DNA of 64,000 bases from Cryomorphaceae bacterium (GTDB lineage Bacteria > Bacteroidota > Bacteroidia > Flavobacteriales_D > Crocinitomicaceae), in the NCBI GenBank assembly GCA_027485415.1, contig JAIXRC010000031.1, forward strand, positions 4,084 through 68,083, read 5' to 3'. Position numbers and translations under genes: made by a program. Below the pieces are notes generated by a model. The model saw only the letters and a program-made list of their open reading frames with translations. It did no database searches and was not told where the DNA came from. The stretch's first letter is position 1. Every line of letters starts with the position of its first letter. Shown here one piece after another: positions 3,775 through 58,788 of this stretch.

Positions 3775-3902
3775 ACTACTTCACGCGGTTAAAAGCCATC
3801 GCTTTCAGCATCCAATTCGGCAGGAATTTACCGGGTTGACGGTTTTTCAAGTTGAGGTACCATCCGATTTTTTTAATCACCGGAACTTTGTGGGTTTCCA
3901 CG
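3775..3902 (-). pseudogene. Displaced, diverged copy of the last ~40 codons plus stop of the VOC-family gene at 4635..5693
   Basis: Translates in frame to ETHKVPVIKKIGWYLNLKNRQPGKFLPNWMLKAMAFNRVK*. The intact gene ends ETHKVPVIKKLGWYINLKNRPVGKFLPKWMLKAMAFNRVK*. The first 40 nt (actacttcacgcggttaaaagccatcgctttcagcatcca) are identical to 4634..4673. No upstream coding continuation. Confidence 0.85.
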
Positions 3903-4032
3903 ATACTCTTCAAAAAAAGTATAAAATGAATTCTGAAAGACCTTTTTATTGACATGTCCAACCTATGAATTTCAAAAGCTACATTGAGCCGCTTAACAAC
4001 TTCAATAAAAATTATTTAATTTAGTTGTTACT

Positions 4033-4263
4033 ATGAAACATGCAATAGAACGAATTACCATCAATCCAGAAATTTGCCATGGAAAACCCTGTGTAAGAGG
4101 AATGAGATGGCCAGTTGAAGTTATTTTAGATTTAATGGGTTCTGGAATGACCCAAGAGGAAATATTGGAGGATCATCCTGAATTGGAAAAGGAGGACCTT
4201 TTGGCTTGTTTTAATTTCGCAAAATTATTTATGTCCGGGCATACCATAAAATACGTTGCTTAG
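4033..4263 (+). CDS. DUF433-family putative antitoxin
   Basis: 76-aa ORF. INPEICHGKPCVRGMRWPVEVILDLMGSGMTQEEILEDHPELEKEDLLACFNFA matches the DUF433 (COG2442) consensus. Its stop is 2 nt before the partner gene. Confidence 0.85.
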   Translation: MKHAIERITINPEICHGKPCVRGMRWPVEVILDLMGSGMTQEEILEDHPELEKEDLLACFNFAKLFMSGHTIKYVA

Positions 4264-4265
4264 CA

Positions 4266-4628
4266 ATGAAGGTTCTTTGCGATGTTCATATTTCGTATAA
4301 CGTGGTACGACTTTTAAACATGAACCAAATAGAATCCATTCACGTTAATGATATTTTAGATGGTTGGTCTACTAAAGACAGAGATATTGCACTCTTTGCG
4401 GACGCTAATGATTTCATAGTCTTCACAAAGGATGCAGATTTTCGAAATTCTCATTTTTTATCCCAAACACCTAAAAAATTAATAAAATTGAGTTTAGGAA
4501 ATATTTCAACGAAAGACCTACTATCCATCCTTACAGAAAACTTAGAGCATTTGCGAAAAATTTGCTTCAACGATTGTTTTATCGTGGAAATAAATCCCAA
4601 TCTAATAAGCTATATAATCCAGGAGTAG
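4266..4628 (+). CDS. DUF5615-family PIN-like putative toxin
   Basis: 120-aa ORF. MKVLCDVHIS...STKDRDIALFADANDFIVFTKDADF resembles the DUF5615/Mut7-C-like PIN fold proteins that pair with DUF433 genes. Tight two-gene arrangement. Confidence 0.8.
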   Translation: MKVLCDVHISYNVVRLLNMNQIESIHVNDILDGWSTKDRDIALFADANDFIVFTKDADFRNSHFLSQTPKKLIKLSLGNISTKDLLSILTENLEHLRKICFNDCFIVEINPNLISYIIQE

Positions 4629-4634
4629 CACTAA

Positions 4635-5693
4635 CTACTTCACGCGGTTAAAAGCCATCGCTTTCAGCATCCATTTGGGAAGGAACTTACCTACTGGGCG
4701 ATTTTTTAGATTAATATACCAACCCAGTTTTTTGATTACAGGTACTTTGTGGGTTTCAACAAATTCGATCCATGCGCCGTCGGGGTCTTCGATGTAGGAG
4801 AATCTACCGCCAGCCTCACCCATATCAAAGGTATCAGAGCTATCTACGGTAAATGGAAAGCCTGCCTTTTCGCAACGTGCTTTTAATTCATCCATTCCCT
4901 GGATATCAAAACACAAATGGATAAAGCCCCAATCTCCCCAAAAACGGTTTTCAAAAATGCGTCGAACGTCGGTGCGGTCCATGGATTGCACCAATTCAAT
5001 GGAGGTGGGTCCCAGCAATTTTGCAAAAGGACCTTTTCTCGCTTCGCGGTGGATTAACTTAACCCGACGAAAGGTTCCTTGCGATAGTGGAGCGAAATCC
5101 TCGAAAGAACCCGTTACATCGTAGACCACCGTTTCATAACCTAGGACGTCACGGTATAACTTCAGCGATTGTTCAATCGACGAAACTCCGATGATGCTCC
5201 CGGCAACACCTCCGCAATGTGAGGGATGTCCTGTGGACGTGAACCAACCGGAACCTTCAACAATTTGGAAGGGATTTCCGTTGGGATCCTCCACAAAATA
5301 GCTTAAAGAACCGTCGGGTGCGGTGGCCAGTGTACCCAAAATTTTCGCCCCTTGTTGCACCATGTAGTTGTAGGAAGCGCGCACATCGCGCGATTTGATT
5401 TTGCAAGAAAAAAGACCTAAGTCACCCAACTGCACTTCGAAGGTTGGTTTTTCGGTATTTCGGCTGGTGTATTGCCAGATTTCAAAGCCTCCTCCACCGT
5501 CCATGCTCAGGGCAAGGGTAGCCGTGCGCGCTTGCACTTTATCGCCTGTATACTGAATCATTAAAGGTGCTTCAGCCGCTTCTTCGAAAATGCGAACGTC
5601 GACGCCAAACATGGTACGATACCAGCTCCAAATCGCTTGAACATCGGGAACACCAATGCCCATCTGTTGAATACCGCAAATTATAGGTTCCAT
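4635..5693 (-). CDS. VOC (glyoxalase/bleomycin-resistance/dioxygenase) family protein, two-module
   Basis: 352-aa ORF. Repeated beta-alpha-beta-beta-beta style modules with FEIWQ, FVEDPNGNPFQIVE and YIEDPDGAWIEFVE motifs typical of VOC proteins. Confidence 0.8.
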   Translation of the reverse strand: MEPIICGIQQMGIGVPDVQAIWSWYRTMFGVDVRIFEEAAEAPLMIQYTGDKVQARTATLALSMDGGGGFEIWQYTSRNTEKPTFEVQLGDLGLFSCKIKSRDVRASYNYMVQQGAKILGTLATAPDGSLSYFVEDPNGNPFQIVEGSGWFTSTGHPSHCGGVAGSIIGVSSIEQSLKLYRDVLGYETVVYDVTGSFEDFAPLSQGTFRRVKLIHREARKGPFAKLLGPTSIELVQSMDRTDVRRIFENRFWGDWGFIHLCFDIQGMDELKARCEKAGFPFTVDSSDTFDMGEAGGRFSYIEDPDGAWIEFVETHKVPVIKKLGWYINLKNRPVGKFLPKWMLKAMAFNRVK

Positions 5694-5720: not shown

Positions 5721-8012
5721 CTAGCGAACTGCTCGTTCATTGAACAGCACATAGCCAAAACTCAGCTGAAAATTCCACGGTGTTGTCACCAAAGGAAAAT
5801 AATTCACGGAAGCCCTAAGGGGCCCCAATGGCGTAAAGTACAGCAAACTTGCCGAGCCTAAAAAACTGTTGGCCTGAAAAGGTTTTGCGTACGTAATAGA
5901 ACCATCGCTCAATTTTTCTAGCACCACAAAAGGCTGGTAATAATAGGCATCGATACGTGCTTCAAAGGATTTCACCAAGGGAAACACCGCATTCAATCCC
6001 AAACAAACGAATTGAGGCGAACGGTATTCCTTAAAAAAATACGTTTCCAAATCTGGAATTATATTCAAGGTAGGCATTGAGAGCAAAGAGGCCGTGTAAT
6101 TGGCAAACAATGACTGCGAATTCAACATAGCTTTTCCATGAAACCCAAAATGCAATCGAGGCAGTGTCAAAAAATAATATTGTCCTTCGACATTGAGGTT
6201 TAACCAATCGTGCTGTTTACGGACGGTTGAGTCAAATTGCGCGGTGGTGCCAGGAATACTCGTTTCTAACGCGGATAAAAATTTTGCCTTGAAGGTAAAA
6301 AAGTGGCCTTCATTGGCAAATTGCTTTCGATTTAACGCATTGTCCGTGATTTCATACGAAACCAGGTTTCCCTTTAAAAAAGTAACATCCGTGGTATCTG
6401 TGCTCAGGAAGTTCATGGTTTGATAGTAATCGTCTTCCAAGGAAAACAATCGCACATCGAGTTCGCCGCGGGAATTCGTTAAGAGTGGGTGCTTTAACTT
6501 CAGCCCGAAGTACATTTCATTTTGGACGAGAAAAGACGGTTTTACGTCTTCAAAAAACGTAGCATAACTTCGGTAGTAATCCCATCGATTCATCGTAAAG
6601 TAGGCATTTGCGCTAACAGGAAAAACACCCGGAAAATCTAAATTCAATTCCGTCCTCACGGAGCCGTAGAACTTCCCAAAATAGGACTCTGCATGAAGGG
6701 AGCTAGCCACCTTACCGAGGTGGCGATAGGTTAAACCAAGATATCCTGTATTTACAGGACGCGAGGATAAATGCCCGCCAATGCCCAATTTGAAGGGTTT
6801 TGACGTGCGCACGTTGAGCTTCAAATTATACGTGCTGTCGGGTTTCATGTTGAAACGAGGAAAAATAAAATCCACCTGCTCGGCGGCATAGAGCTTGTAA
6901 TACCGATCTTCCAATTGACTCCAATTCATAGGTTTATTTTGGCGTCTACCAATCAAGGATCGACTCACGTATTGATCGATGGAAGCAGTCTTGCTGGCAG
7001 AAAGGATCGAAGTAATGAGCAGGGAATCTACCGACTGACGAAGGCGGTTCCTGCGCCCAGCAAGCGCCTTGCTATTGCTCGTATCTGAAACCTGCAATTT
7101 TATGGAGTCGATCAACTGGAGCGTATGAAGATATCCAGCTTCGATGGCTTTTTTGGCCTCTGAAAAACTAAAGGTGCCCACGTTCACTTTTGGTTCAATA
7201 ACGATGCCTTCACGGCAAGGTAAGGCATAGTTGGTGGGGAAGCGCGTGAGTTGGTCCAGCAAACCCAGAAAATCTTGTTCATCACTCACCTCCGTATTGG
7301 CGGAAACATTGCTACCTATAATATAATCTGGGTGAAACGTTTGATACATGACGTCCACCGGGAAATTATTGTACAACCCGCCGTCGAAATAAATTAGGCT
7401 ATCAATTTTTATCGGGTTTAAATACAGTGGATAAGTCATCGAGGCGCGCACCGCAGCGTTCAAATCTCCCGAAGCGAAGGTCACGGATTTTTTATGCTTA
7501 ACGTCGCTGGCAACACAACGAAAAGGAACCAACAATGAATCAAAATTACCTCCTACTTTGGCACCGGTTTGTCCCATCAACCTCAACATTTCGAAATCTA
7601 GGGCTGTGGGTTGTACCAAATTCATTGGTAAAGAGCTGTTCAATAAAGATTTAAAGGAAAAGGGGACCGACACCATAGAGGCATCGGGATATTTCTCCCG
7701 ATAAAGGTACCTTCTCCCTGTTGGTATAATACCATTGGACATCCGTTGGAATTTCTCCGATGTGACCAAAGCTTCCATTTCCCTTGGACTTAGGCCACAG
7801 GCATACATGGATCCAACCAAGGCCCCTGCAGACGTACCGCAAATATAATCGATAGGAATATGATGCTCCTCCAGGGCTTTTAAAACGCCAATATGCACTA
7901 ATCCCGTTGCTCCACCGCCACTAAGCACGACTCCCACTTTCTTTTGACTGAAAACAGCTTTGGAACAGAGACTGCAAAAAAACACAAGAAAAAGGATGCT
8001 TTTACCCTTCAA
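5721..8012 (-). CDS. Patatin-like phospholipase with C-terminal outer-membrane beta-barrel-like region
   Basis: 763-aa ORF with signal peptide. Oxyanion motif VLSGGGATG, nucleophile elbow GTSAGA (GxSxG) and DGG catalytic Asp motif (YFDGGLYNNFP). The long C-terminal half is rich in alternating aromatic beta-strand patterns and ends in F-rich strands. Confidence 0.85.
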   Translation of the reverse strand: MKGKSILFLVFFCSLCSKAVFSQKKVGVVLSGGGATGLVHIGVLKALEEHHIPIDYICGTSAGALVGSMYACGLSPREMEALVTSEKFQRMSNGIIPTGRRYLYREKYPDASMVSVPFSFKSLLNSSLPMNLVQPTALDFEMLRLMGQTGAKVGGNFDSLLVPFRCVASDVKHKKSVTFASGDLNAAVRASMTYPLYLNPIKIDSLIYFDGGLYNNFPVDVMYQTFHPDYIIGSNVSANTEVSDEQDFLGLLDQLTRFPTNYALPCREGIVIEPKVNVGTFSFSEAKKAIEAGYLHTLQLIDSIKLQVSDTSNSKALAGRRNRLRQSVDSLLITSILSASKTASIDQYVSRSLIGRRQNKPMNWSQLEDRYYKLYAAEQVDFIFPRFNMKPDSTYNLKLNVRTSKPFKLGIGGHLSSRPVNTGYLGLTYRHLGKVASSLHAESYFGKFYGSVRTELNLDFPGVFPVSANAYFTMNRWDYYRSYATFFEDVKPSFLVQNEMYFGLKLKHPLLTNSRGELDVRLFSLEDDYYQTMNFLSTDTTDVTFLKGNLVSYEITDNALNRKQFANEGHFFTFKAKFLSALETSIPGTTAQFDSTVRKQHDWLNLNVEGQYYFLTLPRLHFGFHGKAMLNSQSLFANYTASLLSMPTLNIIPDLETYFFKEYRSPQFVCLGLNAVFPLVKSFEARIDAYYYQPFVVLEKLSDGSITYAKPFQANSFLGSASLLYFTPLGPLRASVNYFPLVTTPWNFQLSFGYVLFNERAVR

Positions 8013-9220: not shown

Positions 9221-10493
9221 TTGGAACGTAATTTCGGTTCGTTGCCCCAACGTAAATCTGACGAGGACGTCCGATGGGTTCTTTGTTTTCGGTCATTTCT
9301 TTCCACTGAGCGATCCATCCTGGTAAGCGACCCAAAGCAAACATTACCGTAAACATATCAGTTGGGATTCCGATTGCTTTGTAGATGATCCCTGAATAAA
9401 AATCAACGTTTGGATACAAATTACGTGCTTTGAAATATTCATCCTCTAAAGCCACTTTTTCTAATTTCTTCGCAATGTCCAACAAAGGATCGTTCACCCC
9501 TAATTTGGAGAGCACGTCGTCACAAGCCTTTTTAATGATGGTAGCCCTCGGGTCGAAATTTTTGTATACGCGGTGACCAAAGCCCATTAAACGGAACGGA
9601 TCTTCTTTGTCTTTTGCTTTGGCAACCCACTTGTCGACATCTCCACCATCTGCAGCGATTTGCTCTAACATTTCTATAACTTCTTGGTTCGCTCCACCGT
9701 GCAATGGTCCCCAAAGGGCTGAAATACCAGCAGAAACCGTTGAATAAAGGTTAGCATTCGAAGAACCTACAATTCGAACTGTAGATGTGGAACAGTTTTG
9801 TTCATGATCCGCATGTAGAATTAACAAGGTATTCAAGGCCGAAACAATCACTGGATCAACGGAATACTCTTCCGTTGGCATGGCAAACATCATGTACAAG
9901 AAATTTTTCACGTAATCGTAATCGTTTCTCGGGTACATGAAAGGGTGACTCGTCGAGTTCTTGTAGGACCAAGCCGCAAGCGTCGGTAATTTCGCAATTA
10001 ATCGGTGAACGGTGAGATTCTTTTTCTCAGCACTACGGTTAGGATCCAATGATTCAGGATAAAACGTTGAGAGCGAGGAAATCATGGAGGAAAGAACTCC
10101 CATTGGATGAGCTTTCGCTGGGTATGCCTCAAAGAAACGCTTCATGTCCTCATGGACCAAGGTATGCTTTTTAATGCTGTTTTCGAAAGCATCCAATTCG
10201 CTTTGTTTTGGTAAATCTCCATAAATCAACAAATACGCAACTTCCAAGAAAGTCGCTTTTTCCGCCAATTGTTCGATAGGATATCCTCGGTAATGTAAAA
10301 TCCCTTCTTCACCGTCCAAAAACGTGATAGCACTTTTTGTAGCGCCCGTATTCTTGTAACCAGTATCAAGGGTTACGTAGCCCGATAAATCCCTCAATTT
10401 TGAGATATCAATGGCTTTTTCATTTTCTGTTCCTACAACTACGGGAAGTTCGTATACTTTACCGTCTAATTCGATTTTGGCAGTTTCGCTCAT
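9207..10493 (-). CDS. gltA: Citrate synthase
   Basis: 428-aa ORF with the citrate synthase signature GFGHRVYKNFDPR, plus HADHEQNCSTSTVR and LHGGANQ motifs. Confidence 0.95.
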   Translation of the reverse strand: MSETAKIELDGKVYELPVVVGTENEKAIDISKLRDLSGYVTLDTGYKNTGATKSAITFLDGEEGILHYRGYPIEQLAEKATFLEVAYLLIYGDLPKQSELDAFENSIKKHTLVHEDMKRFFEAYPAKAHPMGVLSSMISSLSTFYPESLDPNRSAEKKNLTVHRLIAKLPTLAAWSYKNSTSHPFMYPRNDYDYVKNFLYMMFAMPTEEYSVDPVIVSALNTLLILHADHEQNCSTSTVRIVGSSNANLYSTVSAGISALWGPLHGGANQEVIEMLEQIAADGGDVDKWVAKAKDKEDPFRLMGFGHRVYKNFDPRATIIKKACDDVLSKLGVNDPLLDIAKKLEKVALEDEYFKARNLYPNVDFYSGIIYKAIGIPTDMFTVMFALGRLPGWIAQWKEMTENKEPIGRPRQIYVGATNRNYVPISER

Positions 10494-45867: not shown

Positions 45868-45941
45868 GGTTTGGTAGTTCAGTTGGTTAGAATACCTGCC
45901 TGTCACGCAGGGGGTCGCGGGTTCGAGTCCCGTCCAGACCG
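45868..45941 (+). tRNA. tRNA-Asp (anticodon GTC)
   Basis: Full cloverleaf read by eye: acceptor GGTTTGG/CCAGACC, D arm GTTC..GAAT, anticodon stem CCTGC/GCAGG with loop CTGTCAC, T arm GCGGG-TTCGAGT-CCCGT. CCA is not encoded. Confidence 0.95.
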
Positions 45942-45952
45942 CGAAAGCGATG

Positions 45953-45982
45953 CCCTTCACACGAAAGTGTGGAGGGTTTTTT
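45953..45982 (+). terminator. Rho-independent terminator after tRNA-Asp
   Basis: cccttcacac-gaaa-gtgtggaggg: a 10-bp stem (one G-U pair) followed by TTTTTT. Confidence 0.7.
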
Positions 45983-46316
45983 CGTTTTAGCGCATGGGAG
46001 TTTACTCCAACATGCGTAAAATGGAAAAACCTGAACGAGGCAAAGACGAGGAAGGGCATCGCCTTCGCAAGGCCCACCCCTTGGGTCCACCGACTGGAAG
46101 GAGGTATTCCCAAAGACTTTTTATTGAGATTTTCGTTTTAGCGCATGGGAGTTTACTCCAACATGCGTAAAATGGAAAAACCTGAACGAGGCAAAGCCGA
46201 GGAAGGGCATCGCCTTCTCAAGGCCCACCCCTTGGGTCCACCGACTGGAAGGAGGTATTCCCGAAGACTTTTTATTGAAATTTTCGTTTTAGCGCATGGG
46301 CGTTTGCTCCAACATG
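45979..46316. repeat. Tandem repeat, 151-bp unit, about 2.2 copies
   Basis: The units start at 45979, 46130 and 46281 (ttttcgttttagcgcatggg...). Copies 1 and 2 differ at only about 4 positions. Copy 3 is truncated after ...ccaacatg. Each unit carries the hairpin cgcatgggagt-tt-actcc(aa)catgcg and a smaller gaagg-gcatcg-ccttc hairpin. Confidence 0.9.
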
Positions 46317-51072: not shown

Positions 51073-51371
51073 GATTTCTAGTGTTAAAAAAGTGAATGTT
51101 TGGTTTTAAATAGGGGGCAAATAATTACCCACAGTTTACTACATGATTTAGACGTCTTATCATTTCCATAGGTTTTGAGCCTTTCGGCGGTTAAACATCA
51201 ACATCCTTCTGCAATGATCACGCATGTTATTTTGAGCGGCGCCCCTCATCATTTTTCCACCGTGCCTTGCCAGGCCGGTTGGCATCTGCGATCACAGATC
51301 TTCTGGATGATTACGGATAGATAACGGCGGTAGGTTCAACGGTTACAATAAACCAGCAATGCGCTATTTTA

Positions 51372-53360: not shown

Positions 53361-53594
53361 GAGGGTCAGGCGAATTTAAATAGTAGTATCCTTATAAACC
53401 CATAAAAAGCGGATTTGTTTGTAGCCTTCCGTGTAACCAAAACCAACAACAACATTATAGGGTTGTATTTCGAACCTTAAATGGTACCAACCGAGTGAAG
53501 ACACCACGGTGGTAAAAACGATACGGACTGCCTCAGTCAAAATCAACGTTGGTCTCCAAGGATTACGAAATGCACAGGAGTTACTTAACGTTTA

Positions 53595-53966
53595 ATGTTT
53601 ATTTGTATGAAAAAACAAGTGATTGTTTGGTTAAAAAACGGCATGATTGCCAAAATGAATGCGTCGTGCATTGCTGCGAGTACCCATCAAGTCTACTTCC
53701 CAAGTACCGAATTCGATTTGCCTTTACTCATCGAAGTAAAACATCAGGGTCTCACCACCCTATTGGATTTGAGCGAATTTAACGACTGCGTAGTGCTTCA
53801 GTTTGGAGAAGACCGTTATTTTACGGGTGCCACGTATTGTCAAAACCGCAACACCGGATCCTTTATGATTCAATCCCAGGCAAAGTTCATTCTACTCATG
53901 CCACTCCCTCTTCCCTTTCCGCTGGAAGAAACCGAGGAAATCATGATTAAACCCATCGAAGCATGA
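53595..53966 (+). CDS. Hypothetical protein
   Basis: 123-aa ORF (start may be the MKKQ at 53610). Its stop overlaps the next start (ATGA). Confidence 0.4.
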   Translation: MFICMKKQVIVWLKNGMIAKMNASCIAASTHQVYFPSTEFDLPLLIEVKHQGLTTLLDLSEFNDCVVLQFGEDRYFTGATYCQNRNTGSFMIQSQAKFILLMPLPLPFPLEETEEIMIKPIEA

Positions 53967-54364
53967 GTTCGCACGACGTATTACCCCTGAGTGATGAAAA
54001 ACGCGCTCAGGGGTTTGGAACCTTTCCTTATGTGATTTTGCGGGTTACCGGAGGGGTATATATGCAGTTCCCCATTCATTTTTATGAAGAAAAAAATCCC
54101 GAGAAACCAGGCTTGCGCGTTCGAGTGGATTCCTTATCGAATGAGAAACAAAATTTCGGCAACCTTTTCAATGTGGTCAGGCAATTTCACAAGCAAATCA
54201 ATCCGGTAGAAGCGAAAACATTTAAACTATGTTTAGTACTTGCACCCTTTGTGGCCTATTTTTTTGAGGACAATGCATTCACCTTTTCAGATGAAATACC
54301 AGAAGGCGGGAGTTTAATGAACTCAGAGCACCAAATAATTGCGATGAATTCCCCTCATTTCTGA
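53963..54364 (+). CDS. Hypothetical protein
   Basis: 133-aa ORF, translationally coupled to the preceding ORF. No family recognised. Confidence 0.45.
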   Translation: MSSHDVLPLSDEKRAQGFGTFPYVILRVTGGVYMQFPIHFYEEKNPEKPGLRVRVDSLSNEKQNFGNLFNVVRQFHKQINPVEAKTFKLCLVLAPFVAYFFEDNAFTFSDEIPEGGSLMNSEHQIIAMNSPHF

Positions 54365-54418
54365 CGAAAAGCCGTGCCGAAAAAGTAACCAAGCACCACT
54401 CGGTTCGTTCATAGGTGC

Positions 54419-55714
54419 ATGAAACTAAAGCTTACCGCAATTGTTGGCCTTTTCGTCTTAGGATTGAGGGCTCAATCGTATGAAATCCTCGAACATAAAC
54501 ATCCAATTAACATTGTTGAACTCCCGCAGCTCAACACCCAAGAGCGGGAATGCAACATTAGCTTATTGCCCAACGGAAACTCCCTCTTTTTCATGAGTAC
54601 CCGTGCTATGCGCGGCGGTTTAGGAGGCAACGGCGATATTTTTCAAAGCGACTTCGTAAACGGCGTTTGGCAGGCTCCGGTGGCCTTGGGTTCCATCAAC
54701 ACAGCATCCGGTGAAGACGAGCCTACCTTCAGCAGCGACGGCACGGAGATGTATTATCAAAGTTGGTCCGGCGATTGGAAGTCGATGGGAGGACCTTATT
54801 ACCGTGCAGAAAAACGCAAAGGATCTTGGGTAAAAACCGGGAGCATCGGGAGCAATATCAGTCGGTTTTTCAACCTGCAATCCCAGGCCAACTTTGGTTA
54901 CGGAACCGATGGAATGGCTGTTTCCGCCGACGGGAAATTGTTCATCGTCGCCTGCGGACCAGATTACGATGGCCCAATGGACTTATATTACAGCGTTAAA
55001 AACGACCAAGGCTGGACTTTTCCACAGCTTTTAGGGGTTTCAACCACCGGCGATGAACGTTCCGTCTTTATAGCCGCCGATAACCGTACCATTTATTTTA
55101 GCAGCGATGGAATGGGAGGTTTTGGAGGCTTAGACATCTTTAAAGTACGCATTGAAGAGAACGGAAAACTCGGAGATCCTATTAACATTGGGGCACCGTT
55201 CAACACCCCTGAAGATGACATGGGATTCGTGGCTTCAGCCGACGGTAAATCGGCGTTTTTCATCCGCAACCTCGACATCTATTTCGCCGATATCTCGGCC
55301 TTAACGGAAAAAATCAAACCCATCACATCCACCCAGACCCTAGAGAAAGCACCGGAAACACCAATAGAAACCGACCCTACCCCCAACGAAGCCCCGCGTC
55401 CAAAACCCTTAACGGTTTTCTTCAACCACGACGCAGATCAACCCATCGCACAAGAACTACAAAAATTGCAGGACTTCAACCCCAATGGTCGTACATTACT
55501 CGTGCAAGGTTATTGCGATTCCGATGGGAACGAAGCCTACAACATAGATCTGGCAAAACGGCGTTGTGAAACGGTGAAAAATGCCTTAATTCGCCTTGGA
55601 ATAGCCAGCGAGTTTATAGAAATTCGAGTTCACGGTGAAAGTAATCCCGCCGCGACGAACGCAACCGAAAAAGGAAAAGCGGCAAACCGGAGGGTAATAG
55701 TTTCCGTTAATTAA
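54419..55714 (+). CDS. OmpA-family protein with TolB-like (WD40-like beta-propeller) repeats
   Basis: 431-aa ORF with signal peptide. Repeated SxDG..xYF motifs (FSSDGTEMYY, VSADGKLFIV, AADNRTIYFSSDG, SADGKSAFF). C-terminal OmpA_C domain (GYCDSDGNEAYNIDLAKRRCETV...NRRVIVSV). Confidence 0.85.
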   Translation: MKLKLTAIVGLFVLGLRAQSYEILEHKHPINIVELPQLNTQERECNISLLPNGNSLFFMSTRAMRGGLGGNGDIFQSDFVNGVWQAPVALGSINTASGEDEPTFSSDGTEMYYQSWSGDWKSMGGPYYRAEKRKGSWVKTGSIGSNISRFFNLQSQANFGYGTDGMAVSADGKLFIVACGPDYDGPMDLYYSVKNDQGWTFPQLLGVSTTGDERSVFIAADNRTIYFSSDGMGGFGGLDIFKVRIEENGKLGDPINIGAPFNTPEDDMGFVASADGKSAFFIRNLDIYFADISALTEKIKPITSTQTLEKAPETPIETDPTPNEAPRPKPLTVFFNHDADQPIAQELQKLQDFNPNGRTLLVQGYCDSDGNEAYNIDLAKRRCETVKNALIRLGIASEFIEIRVHGESNPAATNATEKGKAANRRVIVSVN

Positions 55715-55832
55715 CCCAAATTGGTCATTCCGAAACTACCCTTACCTTTCGAGTGGTGTTTTCGGAGTATTCTGTTTGGTATTTTTTATATTTTGCCACA
55801 ATTTCTGTTTTTTTTGAAGATAAAAATATGGT

Positions 55833-56525
55833 ATGATGAAAAAAATCGAAAATGCAATAACCGATTATATTAAGAGCAGAATTTCAGAAAGTAATTTTAG
55901 TTCGGAATTTTCTCCTAATAATCTTGGACATATTTATTATCAGAAATTACGTCCATTTAATGATTTTCGTAATGCTCAGTTGGTAAATCTTTTTGTAAAA
56001 GAAGGTCAGTATGTGTTTAAAGGAAATAGTTTAGCTGAAATAACTTTTGGAGGAAGTTTAATAAGGATATTTGCTGAAAATTCAGGGATTATTCATATTG
56101 TTACGCCCCTTGGCTCAAATCTTAGTATTGGTGATTGTTTGTTTCATATTTATAGTGATAACAATTCTTGCATTTCAGATTTAATAGAATGGAGAAAGTT
56201 CTCTTCAAAATTAATTTACAATTTAACTACATTAAAATACTTTATTCTTTTTGTTTGTTTTCATATTTTAATCACTTATGGGGTTTTTCTTTTGCCTTAT
56301 ACAATTCGAGGTTTTGCTTTTCTAATCTATTTTGTGATAACTGTTTTAATTAGTCTTTATCTTGTTCTAATCATGAAATACTGTAATGCGTCCCCATATG
56401 AGCAGCAATATATGATGGATCATGCAGTTGATAATACAAATTTTCAAATTCGGTTCACTGTTTTGGCAATCTTTGTTACTTTATTTTACTTTGGTTTGGA
56501 GATGGCAATACTTAATTTTTTTTGA
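55833..56525 (+). CDS. Hypothetical membrane protein on the AT-rich island (lipoyl/biotinyl-like barrel plus ~3 TM helices)
   Basis: 230-aa ORF. LFVKEGQYVFKGNSLAEITFGGSLIRIFAENSGIIHIVTPLGSNLSIGDCLFHIY resembles a biotin-lipoyl-like hammerhead. The C-terminal half is strongly hydrophobic. Composition is very different from the neighbours: one 60-nt line at 56221 has only 10 G/C. Confidence 0.5.
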   Translation: MMKKIENAITDYIKSRISESNFSSEFSPNNLGHIYYQKLRPFNDFRNAQLVNLFVKEGQYVFKGNSLAEITFGGSLIRIFAENSGIIHIVTPLGSNLSIGDCLFHIYSDNNSCISDLIEWRKFSSKLIYNLTTLKYFILFVCFHILITYGVFLLPYTIRGFAFLIYFVITVLISLYLVLIMKYCNASPYEQQYMMDHAVDNTNFQIRFTVLAIFVTLFYFGLEMAILNFF

Positions 56526-56670
56526 AGTGAATTATCTTTAAGATTAAAATCAGTTTAAAAAGGCTTAAGTAGAATTAATTGAGTTACATTTTTCGAATAA
56601 TTTAGAAAAATATTATTGATAAGAAGAATTTTATGAATAATTATCTGAAAAAGTATTCTAGTTATTTCTT

Positions 56671-56713
56671 AGGTTTTGGTGCCCCTTTCATGGGAAGATC
56701 TTTCACCACAATG
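56671..56713 (-). pseudogene. 43-nt fragment homologous to the internal part of the yjdM/phnA gene (58119..58161)
   Basis: aggttttggtgcccctttcatgggaagatctttcaccacaatg versus ggctttgggtgctcctttcaccggaagatctttcaccacaatg. 37/43 positions are identical and the last 21 nt are identical. Same orientation as the intact gene. Confidence 0.8.
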
Positions 56714-56880
56714 CCTTAATTCGCCTTGGAATAGCCAACGAGCTTATAGAAATTCGAATTCACGGCAAAAGCAATCCTGCCGCTACGAACGCAACCGAAA
56801 AAGGAAAAGCGGCAAACCGGAGGGTAATAGTTTCCGTTAATTAGCCCAAATAACTCATTCCGAAACTAACCATACCTTCC
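56711..56880 (+). pseudogene. Diverged direct copy of the 3' end of the ompA-family gene plus downstream spacer (copy of 55581..55750)
   Basis: About 170 nt with about 15 mismatches. In the coding part there are 4 synonymous and 4 conservative replacement differences (S>N, F>L, V>I, E>K). A 60-nt block (acgaacgcaaccgaaaaaggaaaagcggcaaaccggagggtaatagtttccgttaatta) is identical. Confidence 0.85.
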
Positions 56881-57940
56881 TAACAGAACCGTCCGAAAAA
56901 CGCTCAAAAATCACTTGATTATGGGTCGATTGCACCTGATTTCCAAAAATATCAAACCGACCCAATAGCATTGGAGCCATAGATTCCGGAAAATCAAGAC
57001 CTAAACTTGGTGAATACCTCCAATGTTCCGTCAGGCGCTGATTCGCTTCGTCTATACCCGTGACATAATCCATGGCATCTTGGCTTGTTAAACAAACGCC
57101 ACCGCGTCTGCCAACGGATGGAACACCCGGAAGCGCTATCCATGCGTTACTGGGCTCATCAAATTTCCAGAGGTCGTTGTGTGAATTTCCTAAACTATCG
57201 ATTCCAAAGGAGGCATAAACGCCATCATTTAACGCAAATAAGGCGGCGTGACTGCGTCCTAGGCTCGGAAATGCGGGCAAGGAGTCCCATTGATTTGAGG
57301 TAGGATCGAACGCATAAAAACCGTGTTGAAATTGATTGTGCTCATCCCGACCAAACAACAAATATCCTTTCCCGTTGTACGAACAAGCTGAAGCCCGCCA
57401 AAAGGAACCAAACGGAAAAGCAGCTTCTTGGTTCCATCCTGAATTCAAAGGATCAAAGGTCCACACCTCATCCGTGGCAGCGCCTCCAAGATGCTTACCG
57501 CCCATGAGATACAATCGATTGTTCAAAACGAAGGAGGCCGACCCAGAACGACCAAATGAAGGTAAACTGTCTTCCAGGAACCAAACATCAGCAGACGGAT
57601 CATAGCGCCAGAGGTCGTTTAAATATTCGGTTCCATTATATCCACCGAATATATAACCGGAAGCGTTTAGGGTAAACCCAGAGGCATATTGTCGTTCAGC
57701 ACCTGAGGGAAGTGGTGCTGTGTTTACCCATTGATTCGTTGCGCTTTGATAACGATAAAAATCAGCCAAGGCAGACCACCACGGACTCAACCCTGTTCCA
57801 ACATATAAATCTCCGTCAATAACAAATCCTGTAGCATCATCGCGTTCAACTCCCGGAAATGAGGGGAGCATTTGCCAATCCTGAGCAATCACACAAGTCG
57901 AACACCAAAACATTAAAAGGTATGACTGTATTTTTTTCAT
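56855..57940 (-). CDS. Secreted Kelch-repeat beta-propeller protein
   Basis: 361-aa ORF with signal peptide. Repeated Kelch signatures (GGYNGTEYLNDLWRYDP, GGKHLGGAATDEVWTFDP, FGRDEHNQFQHGFYAFDP, NDLWKFD). Confidence 0.8.
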   Translation of the reverse strand: MKKIQSYLLMFWCSTCVIAQDWQMLPSFPGVERDDATGFVIDGDLYVGTGLSPWWSALADFYRYQSATNQWVNTAPLPSGAERQYASGFTLNASGYIFGGYNGTEYLNDLWRYDPSADVWFLEDSLPSFGRSGSASFVLNNRLYLMGGKHLGGAATDEVWTFDPLNSGWNQEAAFPFGSFWRASACSYNGKGYLLFGRDEHNQFQHGFYAFDPTSNQWDSLPAFPSLGRSHAALFALNDGVYASFGIDSLGNSHNDLWKFDEPSNAWIALPGVPSVGRRGGVCLTSQDAMDYVTGIDEANQRLTEHWRYSPSLGLDFPESMAPMLLGRFDIFGNQVQSTHNQVIFERFSDGSVRKVWLVSE

Positions 57941-57998
57941 GCATTTGGTATCGTTAATCGATCGATTTTATTGCCTTTGCACTAAATGAAATGGAGGT

Positions 57999-58340
57999 CT
58001 AAGCCTTTTTTACAAATTCTGACTTCAGCGCCATGGCACCGAATCCTTCGATTTTGCAATCAATGTTGTGATCACCATCGGTTAATCGAATGTTTTTTAC
58101 TTTAGTTCCAGCCTTAACGGCTTTGGGTGCTCCTTTCACCGGAAGATCTTTCACCACAATGACAGCATCCCCATTCTGTAACCGTGTTCCATTGGCATCA
58201 ATGACCATGAATTCATCGGTATCCGCCTCCTCGGTTAGCGTCCATTCAAAGGAACACTCTGGGCAGGTATATTGATTTTCTCCGCTTTCATATCCGTATG
58301 GACATTGACACGATGGACACTCTTTCATTTCTTCACTCAT
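57999..58340 (-). CDS. yjdM: Zinc-ribbon protein YjdM/PhnA
   Basis: 113-aa ORF. N-terminal CPSC...CPEC zinc ribbon and the conserved C-terminal domain VIDANGTRLQNGDAVIVVKDLPVKG...IRLTDGDHNIDCKIEGFGAMALKSEFVKK. Confidence 0.9.
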   Translation of the reverse strand: MSEEMKECPSCQCPYGYESGENQYTCPECSFEWTLTEEADTDEFMVIDANGTRLQNGDAVIVVKDLPVKGAPKAVKAGTKVKNIRLTDGDHNIDCKIEGFGAMALKSEFVKKA

Positions 58341-58374
58341 AATCTATCTATTCGTTTATTCAATTCAATTTGCT

Positions 58375-58788
58375 TCAACCCCACGATTCATCCGTATAAA
58401 AAACGGTTCCTTTGAATAAAGCAACCACCTGATCCTTCTGGTTTTTTACTTCTACCTCAAACCTCCCCACGGTTTTTCCCCGACTTAATTCTTTGCAATG
58501 CGCGGTTAAAATATCTCCTAAAACCGCTTTTTTGACATGGGAAATCGCTGTTTCAATGCTCATGGCCACCTTTCCGTGGGCATTGGCTGCAAAGGCCATA
58601 GCTGAGTCGGACAAGGAATAGGTAATTCCTCCATGCGCAATGCTAAATCCGTTGACCATGGATGGCTTTACGTGCAAGCGAACAGAACAAAATCCTGCCC
58701 CCAAATCCAAGATTTCCATGCCCAATTCTTTGCTAAACGCATCCTCTCCCCACATGCGTTCAACGATTTGTTGCGGTGTTAATTTCAT
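58375..58788 (-). CDS. PaaI-family hotdog-fold thioesterase
   Basis: The ORF track extends to 58857. I favour the Met at 58788 (MKLTPQQIVERMW...), which forms an ATGA overlap with the upstream MBL gene stop. NGFSIAHGGITYSLSDSAMAFAA is the PaaI/4HBT-type motif. Confidence 0.8.
   Translation of the reverse strand: MKLTPQQIVERMWGEDAFSKELGMEILDLGAGFCSVRLHVKPSMVNGFSIAHGGITYSLSDSAMAFAANAHGKVAMSIETAISHVKKAVLGDILTAHCKELSRGKTVGRFEVEVKNQKDQVVALFKGTVFYTDESWG

Follow-up and report, generated by a model that had tools for sequence, protein, structure and literature searches.

A low-GC orphan-gene island between two copies of an ompA gene end in a freshwater Flavobacteriales species: a possible natural insertion-duplication

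Introduction

Foreign DNA can be anchored in a bacterial chromosome by homology on one side and joined on the other through a microhomology of a few bases, as described for insertion-duplication and homology-facilitated illegitimate recombination in E. coli, Acinetobacter and S. pneumoniae (PMC3240628; PMC3784515). In E. coli assays in which only one side was homologous, recircularised molecules that integrated by a single crossover accounted for 56 of 60 events, and the events that were sequenced had duplicated 109-950 bp of the homologous locus (PMC3240628). Gene ends are also exchanged at icd by e14 and phage 21, which leave the icdC pseudogene (PMC13626634), and cis-mobilizable elements (CIMEs) are att-flanked, integrase-less remnants of integrative elements (PMC5704250). 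Here we analysed a stretch of 64,000 nucleotides (nt) from a Cryomorphaceae bacterium (assembly GCA_027485415.1, contig JAIXRC010000031.1), called the window below, in which an AT-rich island with a single open reading frame (ORF), the cargo, lies between two copies of the 3' end of an ompA-family gene. We tentatively propose that this island was gained from a related donor by homology-anchored insertion-duplication, the insert itself encoding no recombinase.

Results

Two ompA tails and a phnA fragment frame the island

An earlier note on this DNA, made from its letters alone, had reported that the end of the ompA gene recurs downstream (55581..55750 and 56711..56880, about 15 mismatches in 170 nt). 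Our alignment gives a direct repeat of 169 nt with 14 mismatches (92% identity), which comprises the last 44 codons of ompA, the stop codon and 34 nt of spacer (about 37 nt on the longer span of the earlier note). We call copy 1 the tail that ends the functional gene and copy 2 the downstream one; all features are located in Table 1. The gene names given in that note were confirmed, the three products being a PD40 and OmpA domain protein, a Kelch-repeat protein and YjdM/PhnA.

Copy 2 is preceded by a 43-nt piece of the interior of phnA, a gene that is intact further downstream. The match reported earlier was reproduced: 37 of the 43 positions are identical, in the same orientation, including all of the last 21 nt. 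Its core (56674-56713 against 58122-58161) is identical at 36 of 40 positions and shows 2-4 mismatches across strains. The 21-mer occurs exactly twice in the window and was not matched in any of 100 dinucleotide-preserving shuffles of it, even with 2 mismatches allowed, showing that the similarity is not random. At the junction, which reads ...CACCACAATG followed by CCTTAAT, the tetranucleotide AATG is common to both parents, phnA (CACAATGACAG) and ompA (AAAAATGCCTT), as the earlier note had stated. This phnA/ompA junction also supports its description of the locus as an acquisition scar in which the end of one segment meets the start of another.

The functional ompA tail is probably foreign and the displaced one is of native type

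Polarity was read from an alignment of copy 1, copy 2, outgroups and L019, an in-species contig without the island. Most strains have a V-type allele in the distal part of copy 2, ending in ...ATNTTEKGKAANRRVVISLE before the stop codon, and L019 has this same allele. In L016, the most divergent of the island-bearing strains, copy 2 encodes exactly the C-terminus of L019 (...NRRVVISLE and stop), and its DNA differs from the L019 tail at one repeat column and a few positions of the downstream spacer. The alignment identifies copy 2 as the displaced native ompA tail, in agreement with the earlier suggestion of a once-functional allele.

In all island strains copy 1 ends in an X-type allele, ...ATNATEKGKAANRRVIVSVN before the stop codon. 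T at repeat column 34 (55613) is fixed in all of them, where L019 and four outgroups have C; most island strains also carry T57, T63 and C69, positions at which L019 and the four outgroups have C, C and T. Copy 1 of L016 has T39 and A47 as well, in common with the outgroups L001 and L003. Copy 1 thus shows 4 substitutions in the 36 nt that directly follow the boundary, and the clustered substitutions of the functional tail begin no more than 34 nt past the start of the repeat. Over the 1.6 kb upstream, only 3 fixed differences separate island strains from L019, at 54166, 54844 and 55396. We infer from this clustering, linked to the island, that copy 1 is foreign and was probably imported together with it. 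Since its substitutions are contiguous with the island, the foreign tract would start between 55397 and 55613; there are no informative sites in ompA between 55547 and 55612.

The coding part of the repeat differs at eight sites, split into 4 synonymous changes and 4 replacements (S>N, F>L, V>I, E>K) as counted earlier, plus TAA>TAG at the stop codon. The eight sites fall into two classes. The F/L replacement and 3 synonymous changes are allelic differences between donor and native types. The other class, three G>A replacements (S>N, V>I, E>K) and 1 synonymous change, occurs in copy 2 alone, though not in that of L016; by their distribution these changes are assigned to later decay of the displaced fragment.

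The window strain and the strains closest to it (L006, L007, L021, L024 and L025) have an X-type distal part in copy 2, with a different Kelch-tail allele alongside. In the window strain the two copies do not differ over the 59 nt that precede the stop codon, and the duplicated length is 169 nt, against 116 nt in V-type strains. This pattern of alleles indicates a later allelic replacement or conversion at a hotspot.

Island-free relatives show the target site

In the in-species contig L019, ompA lies 11 nt from the Kelch gene, and the outgroup L004 has the order ompA-Kelch-phnA, both without the island; the earlier note had expected ompA to be followed directly by Kelch in relatives. Repeat column 108 and the spacer next to Kelch are diagnostic sites at which the L019 tail differs from all copies 2 that were sampled, and its contig is continuous through the 33-nt node shared by the repeats. 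Both features speak for an island-free path that dominated the sample, and against L019 being a mis-traversal of the repeat. The Kelch protein was used to seek further in-species haplotypes without the island, and none was found.

We compared five loci from metagenome-assembled genomes (MAGs) with 71-84% OmpA identity. Between ompA and a thioesterase gene, L002 and L005 are empty, L003 has a phnA remnant of about 42 nt, L001 has phnA only, and L004 has Kelch and phnA. Five different gene contents were recorded for this interval among relatives. In L003 (1711-1760), Kelch and phnA are absent, and the interior remnant (GAAGATCTTTCACCACAATGACTG...) sits between the ompA terminator region and the thioesterase gene. 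It overlaps the phnA segment kept beside the island in the window. Deletions of Kelch and phnA that leave phnA remnants thus do happen at this locus.

The sequence TCATTCCGAAAC...CCTTTCG in copy 1 was considered as the tail of a donor Kelch gene. It also follows ompA in L002, L003 and L005, which have no Kelch gene, and is part of a strong hairpin followed by a U-run; hence it is no evidence of a donor Kelch. The 34-37 nt past the ompA stop codon, which overlap the last 8 Kelch codons in copy 2, are likewise kept in Kelch-less relatives.

The insert carries a single orphan gene of low GC content

The GC content of the segment between the repeats (about 920 nt, with one ORF) is 0.26, against 0.44 for the whole window, and GC at third codon positions of the cargo ORF is 0.20, against 0.40-0.51 for neighbouring genes, in line with the AT-rich, single-ORF segment noticed before. 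A hairpin of -23 kcal/mol (z = -3.65; none of 200 shuffles equally stable) is formed partly by the end of copy 1 and partly by the first 30 nt or so of the insert. Together with the U-run that follows, it is the probable terminator of ompA, as judged from folding. The equivalent region of copy 2 does not fold, and a simple terminator scan did not detect the hairpin of copy 1.

The cargo protein has an N-terminal beta-rich region followed by three hydrophobic helices (residues 131-152, 156-185 and 202-229). Its match to Biotin_lipoyl is weak (E = 3e-4, below the curated Pfam cut-off), and its AlphaFold model is poor (pLDDT 49.5). Database searches with this ORF, as proposed in the earlier note, place it in an orphan family with few relatives: 2 clusters among 5.8 billion proteins and 6 matches among 1.8 billion representatives. 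The homologues that could be read sit in contigs of 25-30% GC. P0002 (81% identical) is the only diverged homologue with surrounding context, and the gene list around it shows a different neighbourhood. A metagenome scan seeded with P0002 gave only unrelated lipoyl-domain matches, and a scan of viral contigs gave nothing.

No recombinase or integrase domain was found in the insert, the only ORF of which encodes a predicted membrane protein of 230 aa. The word "recombinase-free" in the earlier note therefore holds for what the island encodes; as a statement about the event itself it is an inference, a recombinase acting in trans being compatible with the same sequence. Several classes of element were considered and rejected. 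Terminal inverted repeats of a transposon or miniature inverted-repeat transposable element are lacking, the only matches being low-complexity AT sequences away from the insert ends. The nearest tRNA genes, at 45868 and 60201, are not adjacent, which speaks against a tRNA-linked island. There is no Rfam match in the insert, no PADLOC match that would point to a defence gene, and no tblastn match of the cargo to phages or plasmids; the sole PHROGs match is not significant (E = 0.037). A diversity-generating retroelement was dismissed as well: the ORF, which is the only gene between the repeats, has no reverse transcriptase domain, and the mismatches are not adenine-specific, with a mixed spectrum in all three repeat pairs described in this work.

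The structure recurs in independent samples

Both junctions were found in contigs from at least 15 independent samples of one freshwater Flavobacteriales species, and contigs of up to 212 kb span the whole structure. The recurring junctions come from MEGAHIT, SPAdes, Joint Genome Institute (JGI) pipelines and Logan, and unitigs also cross each of them. Over 54400-58400, island-bearing contigs are 96.9-100% identical to the window. A protein identical to the cargo product occurs in 40 blocks of a public collection, always in the same neighbourhood, and look-ups with the ompA, phnA and Kelch proteins agree with this picture. That strain haplotypes were joined into a false structure during assembly is thus scarcely conceivable, even though the source appears to be metagenomic, all matching loci come from metagenome assemblies or MAGs, and the X and V alleles of the ompA tail co-circulate: the same junctions would have had to arise in different samples and assemblers, in long contigs and in junction-spanning unitigs alike.

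Divergence from the window is unevenly distributed. In the island it is 0-0.1%, and 1.2% in L016, the genome background of which diverges by about 1.5%. In ompA it is 0-0.5% among strains and 1.5% in L016. Downstream, Kelch diverges by 0-8.5%, with protein lengths of 345, 352 or 361 aa, and phnA by 1.5-7.5%. By these values the right flank (56882-58340, Kelch and phnA) is classed as a hotspot of allelic exchange. The island itself is nearly invariant and shared by the strains, which indicates that the insertion is older than the diversification of the sampled strains.

One Logan unitig, L017 (DRR333367, 1162 nt), looked circular or tandem, with 30-nt identical ends and a period of about 1132 nt. 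It contains the ompA tail, the island, the phnA piece and the ompA tail again. It was rejected as evidence for a circle: in that strain copy 2 is without the X segment, the first 33 nt are common to both repeats and thus no shorter than the assembler k of 31, and a chromosomal loop in the de Bruijn graph yields exactly this unitig.

Two further scars of the same anatomy

A second scar lies in the window at a glyoxalase/VOC gene. Two 127-nt gene tails, 81% identical, surround about 730 nt of 33% GC DNA that carries a toxin-antitoxin pair. The displaced tail is 98.5% identical over 134 nt, including 6 nt of downstream flank, to L040, the closest relative (94% protein identity). The functional gene is a mosaic: columns 1-750 are L040-like (6% divergent), columns 751-1020 are nearly identical to L039 (0-2 mismatches per 50 columns), and the last 37 nt are of native type. 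Elsewhere in the gene L039 is about 30% divergent (8-26 mismatches per 50 columns). The C-terminus of the functional protein is identical to that of P0010 at 42 of 42 residues, and the displaced one to that of P0008 at 41 of 42. By these comparisons the functional tail is assigned as foreign and the displaced tail as native.

A third scar was found in the outgroup L001, for which the window is the empty site. There a 194-nt stretch that ends with the stop codon of up133, a small gene upstream of ompA, is present at 7338-7531 and 9327-9520 with 94% identity. The two copies enclose a 1.8-kb insert of about 32% GC, on the minus strand of which lie two ORFs of 125 and 384 aa without family matches. 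With the window as outgroup, the sites were split 6 against 5 and the two copies could not be polarised. A phnA-like piece marking a permuted junction was sought at the glyoxalase and up133 scars and was found at neither.

The three scars occur in about 110 kb of unique sequence. Their target genes are unrelated, no common core sequence is present, and the orientation of the cargo varies. In both scars that can be polarised, the functional tail is of foreign type and the displaced one of native type.

Table 1. Position of the features at the ompA locus and at the glyoxalase scar in the window
Feature	Position	Strand	Remarks
ompA-family gene, functional, 431 aa, PD40 repeat and OmpA domain	54419..55714	+	same protein in many metagenome contigs
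Repeat copy 1, putative imported ompA tail, ends ...NRRVIVSVN, with stop codon and 3' spacer	55580..55748	+	T at column 34 (55613), X-type end
Probable ompA terminator, hairpin 55716-55779 then U-run	55716..55795	+	folding
AT-rich segment between the repeats, GC 0.26	55752..56670		first ~45 nt within probable ompA terminator
Cargo ORF, 230 aa, orphan family	55833..56525	+	
phnA/yjdM interior remnant (p')	56671..56713	+	homologous to 58119-58161, codons ~60-74 of minus-strand phnA
AATG microhomology, putative illegitimate phnA/ompA junction	56710..56713	+	
Repeat copy 2, assigned as displaced native ompA tail, pseudogene fragment	56710..56878	+	allele comparison
Kelch-repeat gene, 361 aa, convergent with ompA	56855..57940	-	last ~8 codons overlap repeat copy 2
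phnA/yjdM gene, intact, 113 aa	57999..58340	-	58119-58161 is the segment homologous to p'
Glyoxalase/VOC tail, assigned as displaced native, 127 nt including stop codon	3775..3901	-	
Low-GC cassette with toxin-antitoxin pair	3902..4633	+	DUF433 (4033-4263) and DUF5615/PIN-like (4266-4628)
Tail of functional glyoxalase gene (4635-5693)	4634..4760	-	inside ~270-nt L039-like tract

Other features of the window

SAM-I/IV riboswitch matches above the gathering score are located at 51218-51315 (minus strand) and 53460-53554 (plus strand); the latter is just upstream of two small ORFs without assigned function (53595-54364) that precede ompA. At 45979-46316, 37 nt after a tRNA-Asp gene (45868-45942), a 151-nt unit is present in about 2.2 tandem copies with 97-100% identity.

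Discussion

Homology-anchored insertion-duplication from a related donor is the origin that we favour for the ompA island, with confidence that falls somewhat short of even. The locus combines a donor-type tract within the shared segment, a microhomology join, a flanking duplication and an empty target in relatives, as expected of such an event. The donor would have been a related Flavobacteriales lineage with an AT-rich foreign gene, then a phnA remnant, downstream of its own ompA. The imported block would comprise 1130 bp, from about 55580-55613 to 56713, with the donor ompA tail (the last 44 codons or so, X-type), its terminator, the AT-rich cargo and 43 nt of phnA. Its left join would be homologous and fall in the first 33 nt of the repeat or slightly upstream of them, columns 1-33 being the longest perfectly identical run between donor and native tails. 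Its right join would be illegitimate, the 4-nt AATG overlap placing the interior of phnA before ompA column 1. A single Campbell-type crossover between the chromosome and a donor fragment recircularised at AATG is the favoured route at ompA. It would leave ompA intact with a donor tail and terminator, move the native tail 1.13 kb downstream as a dead fragment, and keep Kelch and phnA intact. The donor gene arrangement, the circular intermediate, the dependence on host recombination and the delivery of the DNA are all inferred.

Several observations weigh against this proposal. A donor genome with ompA, island and phnA remnant was not found, and neither was a circular form of the island, L017 being explained by the 33-nt shared node. 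On its left side the imported tract can be delimited no more closely than 55397-55613. The 59-nt identity of the two copies in the window strain demands an additional, later conversion or replacement. L019 is the single in-species island-free haplotype known, and it is a Logan contig; it may be ancestral or may result from secondary loss by repeat-repeat recombination, both of which fit the model. Finally, at the glyoxalase scar the donor tract extends about 180 nt further upstream than the duplication does, an extension not expected from a simple circle crossover.

This last observation favours, at the glyoxalase gene, a one-ended homologous invasion closed by microhomology end-joining, a variant of homology-facilitated illegitimate recombination or of double-strand-break repair. 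At ompA, a break or free end at 55579/55580 would have invaded the diverged ompA of the same donor and copied the tail, the terminator, the cargo and part of the phnA remnant, and the new end would then have been joined to the other end of the break at AATG. The product would be identical, AATG included, and no circle would be needed. The two routes cannot be separated at ompA because there are no informative sites in the 55547-55612 interval. One-ended invasion would provide one mechanism for all three scars, and it alone accounts in one step for a donor tract that begins upstream of the 127-nt duplication. Nevertheless, we consider it somewhat unlikely as the origin of the island. The duplications recovered in E. 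coli arose overwhelmingly from circle crossovers and not from true one-ended events (PMC3240628), the single-stranded DNA of transformation cannot duplicate its target on one duplex, so that sister chromatids are needed, as in PMC3784515, and one break end must escape degradation. In addition, no tract of donor-type polymorphisms extends upstream in ompA, where 1 fixed difference in 184 nt corresponds to the background rate.

Site-specific integration would explain the replacement of a gene end by other means. The island would then be a decayed or CIME-like element carrying a surrogate 3' end, inserted by a tyrosine or serine recombinase acting in trans. Its anatomy resembles that of icd/e14/icdC, in which the gene end is borne by the element and the displaced native 3' fragment lies at the far end (PMC13626634); such element-borne replacement of the target gene 3' end is found here too, CIMEs likewise lack integrases (PMC5704250), and the identical 28-33 nt at the left ends of the repeats are compatible with an att core, without being diagnostic of one. 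However, the island encodes no recombinase and its cargo is without phage or plasmid relatives, while the far end is a fragment of phnA, a neighbouring chromosomal gene, which points to a chromosomal origin. The three scars affect three unrelated genes with no common core, and the donor sequence upstream of the repeat in the glyoxalase scar cannot be made by site-specific exchange. Integration in trans thus appears improbable. The earlier note had offered, besides the circle integration that we favour, a tandem duplication. In that scheme a segment from the ompA 3' end through Kelch to part of phnA would have been duplicated in situ via AATG, and foreign DNA would later have replaced the first Kelch and the 3' part of phnA. 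A phnA/ompA junction of the expected type would result, the redundant copy would be a neutral target for replacement, and the identity of the two copies over the 59 nt before the stop in the window strain would be natural. The alleles argue otherwise: copy 1 has 4 substitutions in 36 nt and an X instead of a V end, contiguous with the island, copy 2 is of native type, and only 3 fixed differences are seen over the 1.6 kb upstream. Tail and island would have come together from another lineage, so that two extra short crossovers are required, and no relative shows an intermediate with two Kelch genes. We consider tandem duplication very improbable.

Beyond the ompA locus, small low-GC cassettes in these streamlined freshwater Flavobacteriales, with an orphan membrane gene, a toxin-antitoxin pair or other cargo, might habitually travel on the 3' tail of a conserved host gene, although we regard this as unlikely on present evidence. 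As part of the same reading, such homology-addressed cassettes would need no recombinase and would integrate, and possibly excise and re-integrate, purely by host homologous recombination and one microhomology join, a notion that is equally doubtful. This general route is suggested by three cases. Were it true, the gene tails left behind would act as fossils from which events could be counted and donors identified.

The gain of orphan genes and of toxin-antitoxin genes in genomes poor in mobile elements is usually inferred from presence or absence alone. Here, the foreign tail, the start of the homologous exchange, the 4 joining bases and the empty site can all be read from the sequence. On the proposed origin, the insertion silently exchanged the terminator and the C-terminal 20 residues or so of the ompA product; 44 codons would have been replaced, with the differences confined to the last 33. 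The resulting signature, a duplicated gene tail flanking low-GC DNA, with a functional tail that matches a more distant lineage than the gene body does, can be searched for and used to gauge the frequency of this route in wild populations.

Comparison with known systems

Among described systems, e14 and phage 21 at icd resemble the ompA locus in that the functional gene ends in imported sequence, with differences that are mostly silent or conservative, and in that recombination between the tails can restore the native allele (PMC13626634, and Hill et al. 1989 as cited there). In contrast, the 15-kb prophage e14 brings an integrase of its own and has a defined att core, whereas the insert described here has 1.1 kb, one orphan gene and no recombinase, and terminates on the far side in a piece of a nearby chromosomal gene. 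With CIMEs (PMC5704250) the locus shares a small insert without integrase, bounded by direct repeats that contain the target gene 3' end. The repeats of CIMEs, however, are att sites of a known integrase family, usually at tRNA genes or conserved gene ends that are shared by many elements; no att family or partner element was identified here, and the glyoxalase scar shows homologous exchange.

The closest likeness is to insertion-duplication and homology-facilitated illegitimate recombination as studied in E. coli, Acinetobacter and S. pneumoniae (PMC3240628; PMC3784515). The ompA locus shares with them a one-sided homologous anchor with a joint of a few bases of microhomology, a duplication of about 110-170 bp (experimental 109-950 bp) and the lack of an element-encoded recombinase. 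Unlike the laboratory events, this one is natural and near-fixed in a wild, uncultured species, its donor appears diverged (about 5-10% in the tail), and its foreign AT-rich cargo stands beside donor chromosomal debris, the phnA remnant. The locus would thus be the natural counterpart of laboratory one-sided-homology recombination. It is, in our reading of these sequences, an example of a known recombination route and not a new type of element.

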